A stretch of DNA of 22,217 nt from a virus. Taxonomy: Duplodnaviria; Heunggongvirae; Uroviricota; Caudoviricetes. Each line of letters begins with the position of its first letter. The first letter of the stretch is position 1. The translations under genes and the position numbers were made by a program. Under the pieces are notes generated by a model. The model made no database searches and was not told the origin of the DNA. It was given only the letters and a program-made list of their open reading frames with translations. The stretch lies in IMG/VR virus record IMGVR_UViG_2693429700_000019. The stretch is one strand, 5' to 3'. Of this stretch, positions 3,153 to 17,880 are shown one piece after another.

Positions 3153-3730
3153 TGCGGGCCTCCTGTCGAATCGCTGCCACCTTTAACGCCACCGTGCTTA
3201 TGCGTATGCACTGTGATGCCGTTTGAGGTGAAATCGCCGCCGCTGTGCGTGATATTGCCGCTCATCTTTCCCCCTTTTGTGACGTCAAGCGTCGCTGTTC
3301 TCAGAAGGTTTGTGCATTCCACGACGGGCGTATCCAGTGTCACGCTGACGGATGCCTGCAGGGTGGCTGTTTTCATGCCGCTGGCGCTCAGTGCGCCAGC
3401 GTCTGCGTCGTAGCGGAACACCGCGCCATCCGGCGCGCTGACCACGATTTCTTTCAGGCTTTTGCCGGGGGCCGGACTGGCATCACTCCACAGGCTGCCA
3501 ATTATCATGGCGGTTTCCGGGTTGCCGCCAATGCAGGCAATTACCACCTGTTCGCCTGGTGATGGCGGCAACCACACATTGAAGGCACCCGCGCGCGTGG
3601 TGTTCCAGCGCAGCCAGCCTGTTTCCAGTTCGCCGCTGCGAACGCGCACGCACCAGGATTCCTCATCAACTTCAGAGATGATCCCGGTGCGGATGATGTT
3701 GCTCAGCAGCCGCATGAGTTCTGCGCTCAC
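3149..3730 (-). CDS. V: Baseplate spike/assembly protein gpV
   Basis: 193 aa, glycine-rich C-terminus (HTHKHGGVKGGSDSTGGPQ) typical of P2 V-type spike; synteny. Confidence 0.8.
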   Translation of the reverse strand: MSAELMRLLSNIIRTGIISEVDEESWCVRVRSGELETGWLRWNTTRAGAFNVWLPPSPGEQVVIACIGGNPETAMIIGSLWSDASPAPGKSLKEIVVSAPDGAVFRYDADAGALSASGMKTATLQASVSVTLDTPVVECTNLLRTATLDVTKGGKMSGNITHSGGDFTSNGITVHTHKHGGVKGGSDSTGGPQ

Positions 3731-4371
3731 CGTACAGCCTCCGCAATCCGGCCCAGCACCGTGTTATAAATCAGGCGTTCATCTGTCTGGCTGATACCCA
3801 GCAGCTCACGTACCGGGTAATCGGTGAAAATGCCCGGCGCAACCTGATCGCGCTCACCGAACTGATGAACGCGTGCAATACGTGCAGCCACGCCGCTGTA
3901 ACCCACCGTCACACCGGAAGCATCTGCACGGGCTTTCAGGTAGCGGGCGGTGCGCAGTTTTACGAACATGGGGACGCGCCTGGTGCTGTCCTGGTTGATG
4001 CGCCGGGTGCGTATTTCCAGAAAACGGTCGATGTCATCCCGGTAAAACGTGCGGATATTGTTTTTATCCTCATCCCACCCGGTAATGGTTCGCCCGTATT
4101 TCCCCGTGTCGTGATGCCAGTTTTTCAGCGTGCGTGCTTCGTTATTCCAGATAAAGCGAATGCGTTCCTGTATCCGGGTTACGCGGCGTCTGCGTGGTGT
4201 CCACGCGGTCCCGTCCGGCGCTTTCTGTGACCGGATACGCGCCTGCTGGGCGCGGCGTAAATTCTGTGCCAGCTTTCTGGCGATGTTATTGATGGCCTGC
4301 TGATTCAGGCTGTCGCGGATGGCCTCAAAGGTTTCATCCACGCGGGTGAATGCCTTATCCATCGCTTTCAC
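3727..4371 (-). CDS. S: Phage virion morphogenesis / tail completion protein (gpS-like)
   Basis: 214 aa basic protein between R and V; synteny with P2 R-S-V. Longer than P2 S, so assignment is by position and general family character. Confidence 0.6.
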   Translation of the reverse strand: MKAMDKAFTRVDETFEAIRDSLNQQAINNIARKLAQNLRRAQQARIRSQKAPDGTAWTPRRRRVTRIQERIRFIWNNEARTLKNWHHDTGKYGRTITGWDEDKNNIRTFYRDDIDRFLEIRTRRINQDSTRRVPMFVKLRTARYLKARADASGVTVGYSGVAARIARVHQFGERDQVAPGIFTDYPVRELLGISQTDERLIYNTVLGRIAEAVR

Positions 4372-13033: not shown

Positions 13034-13063
13034 GCAAACAAAAAAAGCGCCTTATCGGCGCTT
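13034..13063 (-). terminator. Rho-independent terminator (minus strand) just downstream of the 89-aa gene
   Basis: Minus-strand RNA forms aagcgcc-gataa-ggcgctt followed by TTTTTTTGTTTG. Confidence 0.7.
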
Positions 13064-13071
13064 CAAAAGTA

Positions 13072-13341: not shown

Positions 13342-13470
13342 TTTATTTACCTCATAGGAAAAATATGCGTGCCTTTACAGAGGTGCGTGTAAGCAATAAA
13401 ATATACGACGCACATTTTGATTTACTTCGGAAGGCACGCATATCAGGTTAAGTGAGTCCGACCGAGTTTT

Positions 13471-13500: not shown

Positions 13501-13705
13501 TTTGCATGGACAATGCCGCGCAATTATCTTGTCGCTCACAATGCGAACGATCTTACAAAAAGGCACATTACTGTCAAGATAATTGATCGTTTTAATCGAT
13601 AGATAATAGACAATCTATTTGTTTAACAGATCGATTATTGAAGTAAGTGTGCCAAATGGAATGATACTGTCTCTATAAACGTGAGCATTTTTCGCGCAGA
13701 TGCTT

Positions 13706-14017
13706 TTACTCAGGAAATAACGCCCGGATATTCCCAGCCATCTGGCTGGTTATCTTAGCCACTGGTGCAGACTGTGCTTCAAACTTTTTTGAGCTGATTT
13801 GTGTCACAGGTAACATCTCATCATCAGCCCATGCGGCCAGTCGGTAAGCCTCTGCCGGATTCGTCTTCAGAAGTGCCAGCCCGGCCAGAAAAGCCACGCG
13901 TTGGCCGCTTTTGCGGGCTTCTGGTGTAAGGCTGTCCAGCCAGGCGCATGCTTCTCCTTCGTTCTTGACGGCGGCGGGCTTCAGATAGAAACTTATCCGT
14001 CTGGTTGGTGTCGTCAT
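13706..14017 (-). CDS. parR: ParR/StbB-like centromere-binding adaptor (type II partition), 103 aa
   Basis: From Met MTTPTRRISFYLKPAAV..WLDSLTPEARKSGQRVAFLAGLALL.. ; resembles plasmid R1 ParR N-terminal region as I recall it. aaggag SD lies inside the last codons of the upstream ParM gene. Confidence 0.7.
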   Translation of the reverse strand: MTTPTRRISFYLKPAAVKNEGEACAWLDSLTPEARKSGQRVAFLAGLALLKTNPAEAYRLAAWADDEMLPVTQISSKKFEAQSAPVAKITSQMAGNIRALFPE

Positions 14018-14021
14018 TGGT

Positions 14022-14981
14022 TTACTCCTTGTCCATTGCGTACAGCCCATTAACCAGAGCAAACTGTGGCACCCCGTCCGCGATGAAAGTCGCATTAACT
14101 CCGCAGGCTTCGCGGATAGCGGGTGCCACAATCTCCGCCCCGCCACCGACAACCATCACCCGCCCGTAACCCGAAAAAACCGCCAGCGCGCGGATCACGC
14201 GTTGTTTCAGTGTTTCTTCCTTTTCACGAATAACCGCCATCAGGCTGGCGTAATGCGCGTCATTGTGGATGTGCTGGCGCAGCCAGGCTTCATTATGGCG
14301 ATGTTCGATAATGGTATTGGCGATGTGGTGACTGGTGCGCATACCGTTAGTGGCCATCACCGACAGTACGGCATCGGCCATAAGAGAAACGCCTACGTGT
14401 GGATCGCAAAACACCTGGCTGATACCTGCCAGTTGCCCCTGAACCTTTGCCACATCCAGCGTGGTTCCGCCCAAATCCACAATCAGCAGGGATTCAAACG
14501 GACTCATGTCAGCCAGTGCTTTAAAGCCAGCCGGAATGGATTCAGGCATAACCCGTACGTTACGGATAGTGAATGCTTCGCCGTTCTGGTACTCCACCGG
14601 GCGCATGACGTTCGCTTTTTTGCGGTTGATGTTGGCCATGTCCGGCTGTGCGTTTGTGTCGAAATATTCGCTCAGTGGCAGGGTAACAACCACATCCACT
14701 TCCTGTGGCGTGATGTCTGATTTGACCAGCGCGTGATGAATGGCAATGACATTCACATCGCTGTACTGGTATTGCGTGTCGGTCGTCTGGACAAAGCGAT
14801 CGCTGACCGGATCAAAACCATAGCGCACGCCATCAAGCATGTAGTTAGCAGGCTGCGAGCCACCGAACGGCGCAGACCATTCCGACTTGAAGCTGTTCGG
14901 GCTGATGGCGTTGCGGCGTTCGCCGTTCTCAGTCCATGCCAGCTTGATGTTGGTGGAGCCGTCGTCGATGTAAATTTTCAT
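14022..14981 (-). CDS. parM: ParM/StbA-like actin-family segregation ATPase, 319 aa
   Basis: Actin-fold signature motifs IDDGSTNIKL (phosphate 1), LIVDLGGTTLDV (phosphate 2), VMVVGGGAEI (adenosine) and overall colinearity with plasmid R1 StbA/ParM as I recall it. Confidence 0.85.
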   Translation of the reverse strand: MKIYIDDGSTNIKLAWTENGERRNAISPNSFKSEWSAPFGGSQPANYMLDGVRYGFDPVSDRFVQTTDTQYQYSDVNVIAIHHALVKSDITPQEVDVVVTLPLSEYFDTNAQPDMANINRKKANVMRPVEYQNGEAFTIRNVRVMPESIPAGFKALADMSPFESLLIVDLGGTTLDVAKVQGQLAGISQVFCDPHVGVSLMADAVLSVMATNGMRTSHHIANTIIEHRHNEAWLRQHIHNDAHYASLMAVIREKEETLKQRVIRALAVFSGYGRVMVVGGGAEIVAPAIREACGVNATFIADGVPQFALVNGLYAMDKE

Positions 14982-15012
14982 GTCGGTTTTCCTTATGTTG
15001 ATTAATTAATCG

Positions 15013-15125
15013 TTTACGGGATTCTGAAATCCCGTTTTTGCCTGTTTTGTGCGCGCTTCATATATCGCTGCGCGTTTTTTGCTCATTTACGGGATTCGTG
15101 AGTCCCGTTTCTGTCTGTTTTTTGT
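15013..15125. repeat. Two ~38-bp direct repeats, each with an internal hairpin and T-rich tail, spanning the A stop codon and the A-parM intergenic region
   Basis: tttacgggattctgaaatcccgtttttgcctgttttgt (15013-15050) and tttacgggattcgtgagtcccgtttctgtctgttttttgt (15086-15125); internal dyads acgggatt/aatcccgt and acggga/tcccgt. Confidence 0.7.
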
Positions 15126-17880
15126 TTCCACTGGTCAGGCCACCCCGCAGCAGGTCTGCTTTGCGGCTGGCGCGTTCAGTGGTTTCACTGATTCTCTGTG
15201 CGTGCTCTGCGTCGCGGATGGCGCGCAGCATGTCAGAAAGCACGGTAACGGGTGTTTTCATGGTGTTCTGGTCCTGCTGAAGTGTGGATGCCAGGCGTGC
15301 GGCGGCTTCAGGGTCTGATGCCCCCAGCTGTGCCAGATAGCTGGCGACCGGGTTATGGCGGATCTCCGTGCTGCTTACGCCATGATTACGGCTCAGACGC
15401 TGCCAGAGCTGCGTGATTCGGCTGTCCGGGCGGGTATCCGGTTTGCGTACAATTTCAAATCCCTGCGGTGCAATGATGCTGCCGTCAACGTACAGACTGC
15501 CGCCCCGTAACAGGTGCTGCATCTGTTGTTCACCGATATGCAGGCCGAGAGATTCAGCAGACTCCCGCCATTCTTTAGCGAGTAACTCGTGGTTATCAGG
15601 CAAAGGCCGCTGCTGTTTGCGGCTCTGTGTCCAGTTCTGCATTTCATCGCTGCTGTTTTTTGCCTGTTTGTCACGAAGCGAACGCATCAGCGCCCGGCGT
15701 TCGTGCCGTTTCAGTGAGCGCATCCATTCATTTACTTCAACGCCGTCAGGAAGCTGCGGCCACGGTGCTGGCCGTTCTTCCGGCTGTTCTGTCCCGTTGT
15801 TGCCTGTTTCCTGTACACGGGGACAGTTATTGCCACGAGTCCAAGGGGCGGCAGGGCCGCCCTGAAGGTCAAAACCATTTTCGCGGGCGCTGTCTTCCGC
15901 TTCCGGTTTACGTCTTACCAGCTTCCAGTTATCCGGATGCGTGCACACACGGGAGGATTCCCCGATGAATGGCGACCAGATCCCGTAAATCTGTACACTC
16001 TGTTCGCCGTAATCGTTCAGCTCATCTGCGAGGTCGTAGGCTGTGCGAATCAGGTAGTCCTTGCGCGGAACAAGTACGCCACCCTGTTTTTCAATGTAGG
16101 TGGCAAAACATCCGGCATCAGCGGCAGCGAGTACCGCATCCATTGCGTCATCCTTCAGCCGTTGCGGGCCTTCCGGGTTGCGTGCCATCTGGCTGGCAAG
16201 GCGGCGGAGTTCACGCCACACCTGACGGGAGGGGATGCCAAAGAACTGGAACTGGCGGACCCGGTGAAGGCGCGCCCAGCCGATGGCTCGCTCCACGCTC
16301 TCGGCCATTGATTTACCTGTTTCGTGGTCAACGCGTGGCTTGCCCGTTTTCGGGTCGATGCCATCCACGGCGCGGCTGTCCAGGTTCTTTCCGATGTAGG
16401 TGGCGATGTAGCTGGTTGGCGTGCCTTTTGAGCCGTCGACGTACTCCGCCTTAAAGCGTGGGGTAATATCATCACCCAGCTCGTGACGATCTTCCTGAAT
16501 GGCAATATCGCGGGTGTGGGACACAATGGTGTCGATTTCTTCCGGATGAGCAAAGACCATCATATGCCAGTGCACGGTGCCGTCATGGTGAGGCTCCACC
16601 GTGCGGATGCCATACCAGCGCAGGCCGTCGCGGTTCAGTTTCTTGCGGACCGCTGCAAAAAACGTGTTAACCAGGTAATCGCTGGAGTCGCGCATGGTGG
16701 CCCCGTTCCATTTGGGATTCGGATGACCGTTCTCTGTTGTGGCGTGGTATTTTGACGGGCAGGTGACAGTTAGAAACACCGCTTTGTCGCCACGGGCTTC
16801 GGCCAGAAGTTCCAGCCCCTTCATGGTGGCCATCATTTCTGCCTTACGGTGAACCGGGTTACTTACTCCCGCGTAATACACTGTCTCGAGATCAATCGTG
16901 AACCCGTCTTCGTTTTCCAGCATGAAACTTTTCAGGAAATCGCGTGTTTTCTCGCGCTGTGCGCGAAACTCGCTTAACGCGTCCTGGCTCAGATAGGGTG
17001 ATGTTTTTCTGGAAACCAGACAGGCGGCGCGGAGTTGTTCTTCTCTCCACTCGCAACGTAACAGCCACAGTTTGCGTTTCCACCATTCCGCACAGGTCAG
17101 GCGAAGGATTGCGCCCGGCAGCAGCTCCGTGTCCGGTTCGTTCCTCCGGTCTTTATCTGTTGTCAGTGCGTCATAATGTGGAGGCATGATGTGCAGGTGT
17201 AACGCCATGCGGGCCAGCATCTGATACGCCTTCAGCGTTACATCCATGGTCAGTTCGCCATCGGTCGCGCCAAAGCCATCGCAGAGTTTTTCGAAGGTGC
17301 TGCTGAACATCGCCGCCGTCATGGTGGCCAGCGTCTGTATCTGGTGTTTGTTGAGCTGCGGCAGGTAAAGCAAATCGTCCAGGCGTTCGCGTCCGGCAAG
17401 GGAGCGATAACCCGGTGTCAGCCAGTGTCCGTCAGTGCGATCCAGACGTTCGAATATTTTGCGCAGGGTTCCGCGTGCATAGCGTTCCGCCTGCCAGCTC
17501 TTTTTGCCTTTCCGGCGATCGGCTTCCTGTTTTTTGCGCAGGAAGGAGAGGTGGCGAATAAGCGGATCGCGCAGATAGGACGGCAGCAGGCGCAGCGAGG
17601 CCATGGCTTCATCCACCGCGCCGCGTGCCTGTTTTCTGGCGTCTCCTGCCAGTGTGATGGTTTTGTCCTGTTTTTCCTGTGCGTCCAGGCTTTTATTAAT
17701 CAGGTTGCCCAGTGGCGTGGCGGAGAACGCCGCATCAGCCATTTCCTGGCGGCGCTCGTTCTCTACCCGGTAGGCATCCAGCCAGGAGGAAAGCGCGGAT
17801 TCAGGAGCGGGGATCCCCGTTCCTTCACGCCCCACTGCGTGGCGCGGTTGTTGCCAGTCCCTGATGTACTCTGCCGTCAT
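15058..17880 (-). CDS. A: Replication initiation protein A (HUH rolling-circle endonuclease, P2 gpA family), 940 aa
   Basis: HUH-type motif ..DGTVHWHMMVFAHPEE.. and catalytic tyrosine motif ..SYIATYIGKNLD.. in the middle of the protein; position upstream of the cargo locus and downstream of early small ORFs as in P2. Confidence 0.8.
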   Translation of the reverse strand: MTAEYIRDWQQPRHAVGREGTGIPAPESALSSWLDAYRVENERRQEMADAAFSATPLGNLINKSLDAQEKQDKTITLAGDARKQARGAVDEAMASLRLLPSYLRDPLIRHLSFLRKKQEADRRKGKKSWQAERYARGTLRKIFERLDRTDGHWLTPGYRSLAGRERLDDLLYLPQLNKHQIQTLATMTAAMFSSTFEKLCDGFGATDGELTMDVTLKAYQMLARMALHLHIMPPHYDALTTDKDRRNEPDTELLPGAILRLTCAEWWKRKLWLLRCEWREEQLRAACLVSRKTSPYLSQDALSEFRAQREKTRDFLKSFMLENEDGFTIDLETVYYAGVSNPVHRKAEMMATMKGLELLAEARGDKAVFLTVTCPSKYHATTENGHPNPKWNGATMRDSSDYLVNTFFAAVRKKLNRDGLRWYGIRTVEPHHDGTVHWHMMVFAHPEEIDTIVSHTRDIAIQEDRHELGDDITPRFKAEYVDGSKGTPTSYIATYIGKNLDSRAVDGIDPKTGKPRVDHETGKSMAESVERAIGWARLHRVRQFQFFGIPSRQVWRELRRLASQMARNPEGPQRLKDDAMDAVLAAADAGCFATYIEKQGGVLVPRKDYLIRTAYDLADELNDYGEQSVQIYGIWSPFIGESSRVCTHPDNWKLVRRKPEAEDSARENGFDLQGGPAAPWTRGNNCPRVQETGNNGTEQPEERPAPWPQLPDGVEVNEWMRSLKRHERRALMRSLRDKQAKNSSDEMQNWTQSRKQQRPLPDNHELLAKEWRESAESLGLHIGEQQMQHLLRGGSLYVDGSIIAPQGFEIVRKPDTRPDSRITQLWQRLSRNHGVSSTEIRHNPVASYLAQLGASDPEAAARLASTLQQDQNTMKTPVTVLSDMLRAIRDAEHAQRISETTERASRKADLLRGGLTSGNKKQTETGLTNPVNEQKTRSDI

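Follow-up and report, generated by a model that had tools for sequence, protein, structure and literature searches.

Why does an integrating phage keep a plasmid segregation machine, and at which DNA site would such a machine work? The question is raised by IMG/VR virus record IMGVR_UViG_2693429700_000019, a stretch of 22,217 nucleotides (hereafter the window) that is a P88-like (Xuanwuvirus, P2-like) prophage read in reverse. It encodes an actin-like ParM and its partner ParR next to the replication gene A, and two repeats lie at the junction of A and parM. We propose that these repeats are probably a centromere-like site of a prophage type II ParM/ParR module, i.e. a candidate ParR-binding site equivalent to parC. 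The layout of the site is unusual: two dyad-containing units lie seven helical turns apart, are promoterless and overlap the upstream coding sequence. Taken together, position, conservation across lineages, linkage to parM, correlation with ParR and variation within the clade make the centromere reading the best supported one. In the literature searched, no description of a centromere for P88-like parMR was found; the genes have so far been listed only as “cargo” or “fitness” genes of these prophages (PMC6456863).

The two repeats at the A-parM junction

The elements of the junction and the three genes around it are located in the window as follows.

15083..15124, minus strand: distal 42-nt repeat (copy 2), encoding the last ~22 codons of A (...KKQTETGLTNPVNEQKTRSDI*)
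15089..15108, no strand assigned: distal dyad ACGGGAYT-N4-RRTCCCGT, with a GGG-N10-CCC core starting at -125 from the parM ATG
15052..15082, minus strand: central segment of 31 bp between the repeats, holding the A stop codon and deleted in variant L037
15010..15051, minus strand: proximal 42-nt repeat (copy 1), in the A-parM spacer
15016..15035, no strand assigned: proximal dyad ACGGGATT-N4-AATCCCGT, with a GGG-N10-CCC core starting at -52 from the parM ATG
14998..15010, minus strand: ATTAATTAATCAA, with an ATTAAT(CAA) motif on the immediate 5' side of the Shine-Dalgarno sequence of parM, kept in the window, Hafnia and Plesiomonas
15058-17880, minus strand: gene A, P2-type HUH replication endonuclease of 940 amino acids (Pfam Phage_GPA, E 6e-132)
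14022-14981, minus strand: parM, actin-like segregation ATPase (StbA_N, E 1e-80; ParM C-terminal domain, E 3e-68)
13706-14017, minus strand: parR (StbB family), presumed binder of the repeats (Plasmid_stab_B, E 2e-23)

The repeats form one direct-repeat family of 42 nt (15010-15051 and 15083-15124) with 34/42 identical positions (81%) and a start-to-start distance of 73 bp. In 300 shuffles of the region 14500-15700 the best 42-nt match reached 30/42 with a mean of 24.6, and the binomial tail multiplied by the number of position pairs gives a significance of ~9e-8. The A stop codon (15058-15060) and the parM ATG (14981-14979) enclose a spacer of 76 bp. The original prediction for this junction had described direct repeats of ~38 bp, 73 bp apart, each with an internal dyad followed by a T-rich tract, one repeat in the last codons of A and the other in the 76-bp A-parM spacer. 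Repeats, spacing and placement relative to both genes agree with our coordinates and the dyads and tracts were borne out (15016-15035 and 15089-15108), while the repeat unit had to be corrected to 42 nt.

The proximal dyad (ACGGGATT-CTGA-AATCCCGT) has a perfect 8-bp stem, and the distal dyad (ACGGGATT-CGTG-AGTCCCGT) has six perfect pairs plus G.T and T-A on the plus strand. As DNA hairpins they have energies of -7.8 kcal/mol (z -4.7) and -5.1 kcal/mol (z -3.0), respectively. The dyad pattern has only two matches in the 22-kb window, which are these two dyads. On the plus strand a T-rich tract follows each of them, and both copies were flagged as terminator-like. The ATTAAT(CAA) motif in front of parM is conserved although its surroundings are not; no convincing -10 element was found with it.

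Conservation of the sites and of ParR

A search with ParM recovered the same A...parM-parR gene order in P2-like prophages of three further groups, whose ParM proteins are 62% (Hafnia), 62% (Plesiomonas) and 53-58% (Serratia/Enterobacter) identical to that of the window; a species-level genome scan contributed few further prophage lineages. The core pattern GGG-N10-CCC was derived from the E. coli copies alone. Counted from the parM start, it occurs as a pair at -125/-52 in the window, at -128/-55 in the Hafnia locus L167 and at -131/-59 in the Plesiomonas locus L170, with a spacing of 72-73 bp and with no further match within 200 nt upstream of parM in any of the three. With a background frequency of 2.3e-4 per nt, the probability of such a finding is ~1e-5 per locus, and a pair spaced 70-75 bp was obtained in 0 of 100,000 shuffles. 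When the four upstream regions were aligned, the invariant columns included the GGG/CCC half-sites of both dyads; apart from the ATTAAT(CAA) motif, the upstream region is otherwise essentially unalignable across the lineages. In four loci the A stop codon was placed at -79, -104, -548 and -541 relative to the start of parM, whereas the dyads stay where they are. This constant distance of the dyads from parM, set against an A stop that varies by ~470 bp, indicates that the sites track parM and not A. In Hafnia the distal dyad is located within the upstream open reading frame (ORF) and the proximal dyad spans the stop codon of that ORF. P2 does not encode parMR, and the end of its A gene is without such dyads.

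The stems at the Hafnia and Plesiomonas sites consist only of GGG/CCC with loops of 10 nt and are not significant (~-3 kcal/mol, z -1.3 to -2.4), and the T-tract that follows the dyads on the antisense strand is absent at these orthologous sites. In the Serratia/Enterobacter branch the GGGA/TCCC motifs are rearranged as the outer ends of one large inverted repeat. The Serratia locus shares the exact 16-mer ACAGGCAAAAACGGGA with copy 1 and conserves the A/T-tract without any hairpin. Judged from these alignments, what is conserved is the inverted half-site pair, its spacing and its position, and not the hairpin or the terminator-like appearance.

The presumed binder differs along with the site. 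The N-terminal segment of ParR, which is predicted to bind DNA, is nearly identical in the three dyad-bearing lineages, where it reads TRRISFYLKP, TRRISFYLNP or TRRVSFYLKP, and it reads NRKISFYLKP in the Serratia/Enterobacter branch with its rearranged site. These differences parallel those in site architecture, and ParR thus correlates with the type of site. Among E. coli ParR variants with identities down to 53%, the N-terminus and the C-terminal tail NIRALFPE are invariant, which matches the described ParR layout of a ribbon-helix-helix (RHH) head and a conserved ParM-binding tail (PMC5016525). With an N-terminus that is invariant across the E. coli ParR classes, ParR variation offers no natural specificity contrast. 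When 70 loci were sorted into ParR linker classes, almost all of them had kept, as a minimum, the distal dyad at -125; neither dyad was matched strictly in two of them, one of which is L078. The linker itself (residues ~65-95) is hypervariable in E. coli P88-like prophages (window 13706-14017; homologues P0121-P0201), whereas the full-length ParM proteins of the E. coli clade in the ParM search are all at least 91% identical to the window ParM. Linker recombination or diversifying selection may account for this variation.

The junction was recovered from 155 IMG/VR loci, fetched with ParM and with the C-terminus of A, and these represent 74 distinct haplotypes of the E. coli clade. Some contigs occur in both sets, and the 80 loci kept per scan are 97-100% relatives, which give haplotypes and rare mosaics rather than a deep comparison. 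The GGG/CCC core of the distal dyad is invariant in all 74 haplotypes. Variability is highest at the dyad centres (pi 0.11-0.12), and changes at stem positions are all one-sided, with none compensated. Near-invariant half-site cores, variable centres and the absence of compensation constitute the pattern of a protein-binding site and not that of a hairpin.

Rearranged relatives add to this picture. In the mosaic L078, A is truncated and followed by an unrelated ORF of 155 amino acids that ends in the same tail as the window A, since the sequence becomes homologous to the window again at precisely 15122, where copy 2 has its outer edge. Its occurrence on an unrelated ORF means that this tail is not kept as a part of A. 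In L037, A ends in the register of copy 1, 26 nt before the parM ATG. In L127, both repeats and the first 17 codons of parM are kept and parMR is gone; the replacement looks recent, since these 17 codons are retained. From L078, L037 and L127 we conclude that the distal repeat travels with parMR and not with A. The stretch that follows the repeats downstream behaves as a hotspot for the exchange of cargo, comparable to the tin/old region of P2.

Some further observations were made on these loci. An extra ORF of 155-167 amino acids is present between A and parM in L078 (1957-2424) and in the Hafnia locus L167 (3453-3956). The L078 ORF has a CxxC...CxxC N-terminus, and it is its 3' end, not that of A, that overlaps the distal repeat; two unrelated proteins, the window A and the L078 ORF, thereby have in common the ~20-residue tail encoded by this repeat. 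A itself is 940 amino acids long in the window and 761 in P2. Its last ~145 amino acids have relatives only in Xuanwuvirus phages of the phage collection and are replaced in L078. In place of parMR, L127 carries a Doc/Phd-like toxin-antitoxin pair on the opposite strand (3230-4200, corresponding to window 14932-13036).

A candidate centromere and its alternatives

The repeats lie directly upstream of parM-parR, and type II centromeres sit immediately upstream of parM-parR-type genes (PMC5016525). We propose that ParR, which is expected to be an RHH dimer, binds the GGGA/TCCC half-sites of both dyads and possibly also contacts AAAC(A/G)G sub-motifs next to them. For RHH partition proteins, equivalent binding to direct and to inverted sub-sites is reported (PMC5016525). 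At a distance of 73 bp, about seven helical turns, the two dyads should face the same side of the double helix. ParR assembled on this DNA would then catch ParM filaments at their growing ends by means of its conserved C-terminal tail. The parMR genes would be read through from A as part of the early lytic operon and be silent in the repressed prophage, and the centromere would act on excised, infecting or replicating phage DNA rather than in the repressed integrated prophage. When bound at the repeats, ParR could in addition reduce the transcription that reads through into parM. Four points are our inference: that ParR binds, how its complex with the DNA is arranged, that parMR is co-transcribed with A, and what the system does biologically.

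Transcription was considered on both strands. A terminator scan found no minus-strand terminator between A and parM, and a strong one in this direction is placed behind the gene cluster:

13044..13064, minus strand: strong intrinsic terminator closing the A-parM-parR-orf89 unit

The parMR genes are thus probably co-transcribed with A by read-through from the early lytic operon. The terminase and portal genes are on the plus strand, convergent with the A-parM-parR unit; Cox, an HTH (helix-turn-helix) repressor-like gene and an integrase are also encoded in the window. A minus-strand promoter-like site (TTGACA-16-TAAGAT) is present in the variable cargo region at 13550-13577.

Several observations weigh against a centromere at this junction. 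A consensus scan of the 220 nt upstream of parM revealed no sigma-70 promoter at 9/12 or 8/12 matches. The same scan recognized the promoters of the R1-like locus L005 (TTGACT-16-TAAACT) and of plasmid L200 (TTGTTA-16-TATAAT), and the prophage sites are without promoter at 8/12 matches except for a marginal one in Hafnia. The site comprises only two large units and not 4-10 short direct iterons. With a matrix built from seven R1-like iterons, the window sites reach the modest ranks of 124th and 216th among 44,410 positions; the Hafnia distal site GAAACCCAAAAAC is the top match of this matrix in its locus. The phasing of AAAC motifs is weak (R=0.58 at 10.3 bp), with ~10% of random placements being as good, and the distance of 14 bp between the half-site centres is not what textbooks give for a single RHH dimer. 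The AlphaFold2 (AF2) model of ParR has a predicted local distance difference test score (pLDDT) of 52 and does not confirm the fold, and a phmmer search of ParR against the PDB gave no sequence match. In the E. coli clade, the right half of the proximal dyad is CCT instead of CCC in 12/74 haplotypes, i.e. a core C is mutated. Taken in full, copy 1 does not exceed synonymous sites in conservation (pi 0.067 versus 0.043). Finally, L037 has a single hybrid copy and no inter-repeat segment.

As no promoter was found at the sites, the operator half of the analogy to parC does not hold. Of the parC-like centromere or operator that the original prediction had considered, the number of dyads, their spacing and their distance to parM proved to be conserved, and the sites follow parMR; the overlap with a promoter was not found.

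The dyad symmetry and the conservation of the half-sites point to a DNA-binding protein that is a dimer and do not by themselves give its identity. Instead of ParR, the sites could be bound by A, by another phage regulator or by a host factor, for control of replication or regulation of the operon. A is present in every locus with the sites, and the repeats persist in L127 although parMR has been replaced there. Against this, the distance to parM is fixed while that to A varies as described above, P2 is without parMR and also without the sites, and the 17 parM codons left in L127 point to a recent event. The ParR N-terminus, moreover, changes in parallel with the architecture of the site. We therefore regard a binder other than ParR as unlikely.

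The repeats could also be tandem intrinsic terminators on the plus strand, which stop antisense transcription from the parR/parM side before it enters gene A; read-through of the convergent late P-Q operon or a cargo promoter are examples of possible sources. Both copies pass the plus-strand scan with 8-pair stems and T-rich tails, although in the E. coli clade only, and as RNA the hairpins have energies of -10.4 and -10.2 kcal/mol. The imperfect stem position of copy 2 is a G.U wobble on the plus strand and a C.A mismatch on the minus strand. A promoter-like site on the plus strand, TTTACA-17-TAAAAT at 13374-13402 in the variable cargo region, is directed antisense into parR/parM. However, this site, the only plus-strand promoter-like one upstream of the repeats, exists in just 11 of the 56 relatives whose flank is full, and both dyads are present in 39 of the remainder. 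No plus-strand gene precedes the repeats. The central pair of copy 1 is changed to C.A on the plus strand in 12/74 haplotypes and its terminal pair likewise to C.A in 24/74, in both cases uncompensated. In L078 both copies carry an identical uncompensated G-to-A change in the left arm, with AGG cores instead of GGG. The stems of Hafnia and Plesiomonas are weak (-3 kcal/mol) and lack the T-tract, and Serratia keeps the A/T-tract without the hairpin. Since no plus-strand gene is present, hairpin and T-tract are not conserved and compensation is lacking, terminators are quite unlikely as the explanation of the repeats. An additional role as terminator within the E. coli clade may exist. The original prediction had noted a terminator-like appearance on the plus strand without a preceding gene, and both observations hold; the insulating function that it had considered is poorly supported, as the appearance is not conserved.

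It is highly unlikely, in our view, that the repeats act as an RNA structure in the sense A-parM messenger, through local hairpins or pairing of the two copies, and control processing, stability or parM translation. A sense RNA of 149 nt folds at -33.5 kcal/mol (z -4.75) by pairing both copies, and the fold, which has the A stop codon inside it, stops ~30 nt short of the parM Shine-Dalgarno sequence. Such long-range pairing is probably automatic, because two copies of a palindrome are present; in the antisense RNA (window 14982-15130) the copy-copy helix reaches -40 kcal/mol with z about -4.5. The stem extensions are not conserved in Hafnia or Plesiomonas, the 74 haplotypes contain 0 compensatory substitutions, and the change shared by both copies of L078 is likewise uncompensated. 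No Rfam family was matched within 14700-15400 at E<=1.

A non-functional relic is as poor a candidate as the RNA structure. The repeats would then have arisen by a 73-bp duplication of the 3' end of A or be left over at a module junction in a recombination hotspot for cargo. In the register of copy 2, copy 1 encodes a similar peptide followed by a stop (TKQAKTGFQNPVND*), and the A protein of L037, with its hybrid copy, ends with that tail. Recombination junctions are located at or near the repeats in L078 and L127, and copy 1 is, as stated above, no more conserved than synonymous sites. On the other hand, the differences between copy 1 and copy 2 are not biased to synonymous positions (4, 2 and 2 in codon positions 1, 2 and 3, as read directly from the sequence), and the same tail occurs on the unrelated ORF of L078. 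Amid unalignable sequence, the dyad pair recurs in Hafnia and Plesiomonas, spaced and placed with respect to parM as in the window. Because of this conservation across lineages, we rejected copy 1 as a coding relic of A as the main explanation.

Finally, the repeats have next to no probability of being part of the rolling-circle origin or the nick site of the A protein, which the original prediction had raised as a possibility. The P2 origin (ori) is located inside A, and HUH endonucleases often nick at hairpins. In the P2 record, however, the nick is at 29892 inside A, and the nick-site sequence (GCGCCTC^GGAGTCCTGTCAATAACTGT) aligns to window 15823-15860, ~750 bp from the repeats:

15823..15846, minus strand: homologue of the P2 ori nick-site core, CCTTGGACTCGTGGCAATAACTGT, not part of the repeat element

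This region (15823-15860, minus strand, inside A) is clearly homologous to the nick site mapped at the P2 ori (GCCGCCCCTTGGACTCGTGGCAATAACTGT). Each P2-like locus examined in which this part of A is included has a single occurrence of the core GGCAATAACTGT, and the A genes of the E. coli, Plesiomonas and Serratia loci have one conserved nick core each. The repeats have no similarity to the P2 nick-site sequence, and in Hafnia and L078 another ORF separates them from A. The proposal of an origin or nick site at the repeats was therefore dropped.

Relation to known partition systems and meaning for the phage

The proposed centromere shares several traits with parC of plasmid R1. Both are directly upstream of parM-parR and have an A-rich sense strand, and the proteins of the window belong to the same Pfam families as R1 ParM/ParR, the window ParM being ~46% identical to R1-like StbA and 46-52% identical to plasmid ParMs. 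The plasmid relatives R1-like L005 and IncL/M L002 have repeat blocks upstream of parM that are spaced 72-73 bp; in L005, the repeat units are arranged in two blocks with copies 72-73 bp apart, as in the window. R1 parC consists of 2 x 5 direct 11-bp iterons flanking the promoter, and the site of pSK41 of 4 x 20 bp. In contrast to short direct iterons, the window has two 42-nt units around an inverted GGGA/TCCC pair. The sites of the window are without detectable promoter, unlike L005, the distal unit is inside the upstream coding sequence and the match to the iteron matrix is weak. Furthermore, the replicon is an integrating P2-like phage and not a plasmid. The nearest plasmid ParM found is that of the Apirhabdus plasmid L200 (61% identical), which also has repeats upstream of parM. 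These are textbook 11-bp GTTCTCAAATA iterons on both sides of its promoter, and L200 has no GGG-N10-CCC dyads.

Another comparable system is srpMRC of the SXT/R391 integrative and conjugative elements (ICEs), a type II partition module in an element that is normally integrated in the chromosome (PMC4489591). Its site srpC is formed by four 13-bp repeats, direct and inverted, within the srpM leader, and its expression follows the activation programme of the element rather than a constitutive promoter of its own (PMC4489591). Few repeats just upstream of a ParM-like gene are seen in the window as well, and a similar mode of expression is what we propose here. SrpR has no recognisable similarity to ParR (PMC4489591), whereas the ParR of the window is a clear member of the StbB family. 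The repeat sequences of srpC are unrelated to those described here, and srpC is intergenic while the window site overlaps a coding 3' end. Binding of SrpR and plasmid stabilisation were shown experimentally (PMC4489591); for the window site the corresponding functions are proposed. AlpAC/alpS of the Corynebacterium glutamicum prophage CGP3 likewise combines an actin-like protein of a prophage with a DNA-binding adaptor and cognate sites, and is reported to act on viral DNA after induction (PMC5539076). Its host phylum, actin-like subfamily, adaptor and sites all differ from those of the window.

P88-like (Xuanwuvirus) prophages are very common in E. coli. Of 5,426 complete E. coli genomes, 1,299 contain the junction sequence (window 14975-15135), with 1,433 places on chromosomes and 2 on plasmids, which indicates an integrating phage. 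A centromere-like site of plasmid type is thus chromosomal in ~1/4 of the sequenced E. coli strains.

In conclusion, the definition of a cis site turns the annotation of parMR into a testable system of which ~120 bp are specified, and it guards against mis-annotation of the sites as terminators or as the phage origin. The absence of an apparent promoter and the embedding in the early operon predict action on extrachromosomal phage DNA and not in the quiescent lysogen, a prediction that bears on why an integrating phage keeps a plasmid segregation machine. We speculate, as a possible but on balance doubtful extension, that the module is a complete, though promoter-less, ParMRC with its centromere overprinted on the end of a replication gene and wired into the early lytic operon, and that its filaments position or separate phage genomes. 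If so, ParM filaments would be at work while the phage infects, excises or replicates by rolling circle, or they would ensure that a transient episome reaches both daughter cells ahead of integration. A classical temperate coliphage would then have adapted a plasmid segregation system to its lytic or establishment phase.

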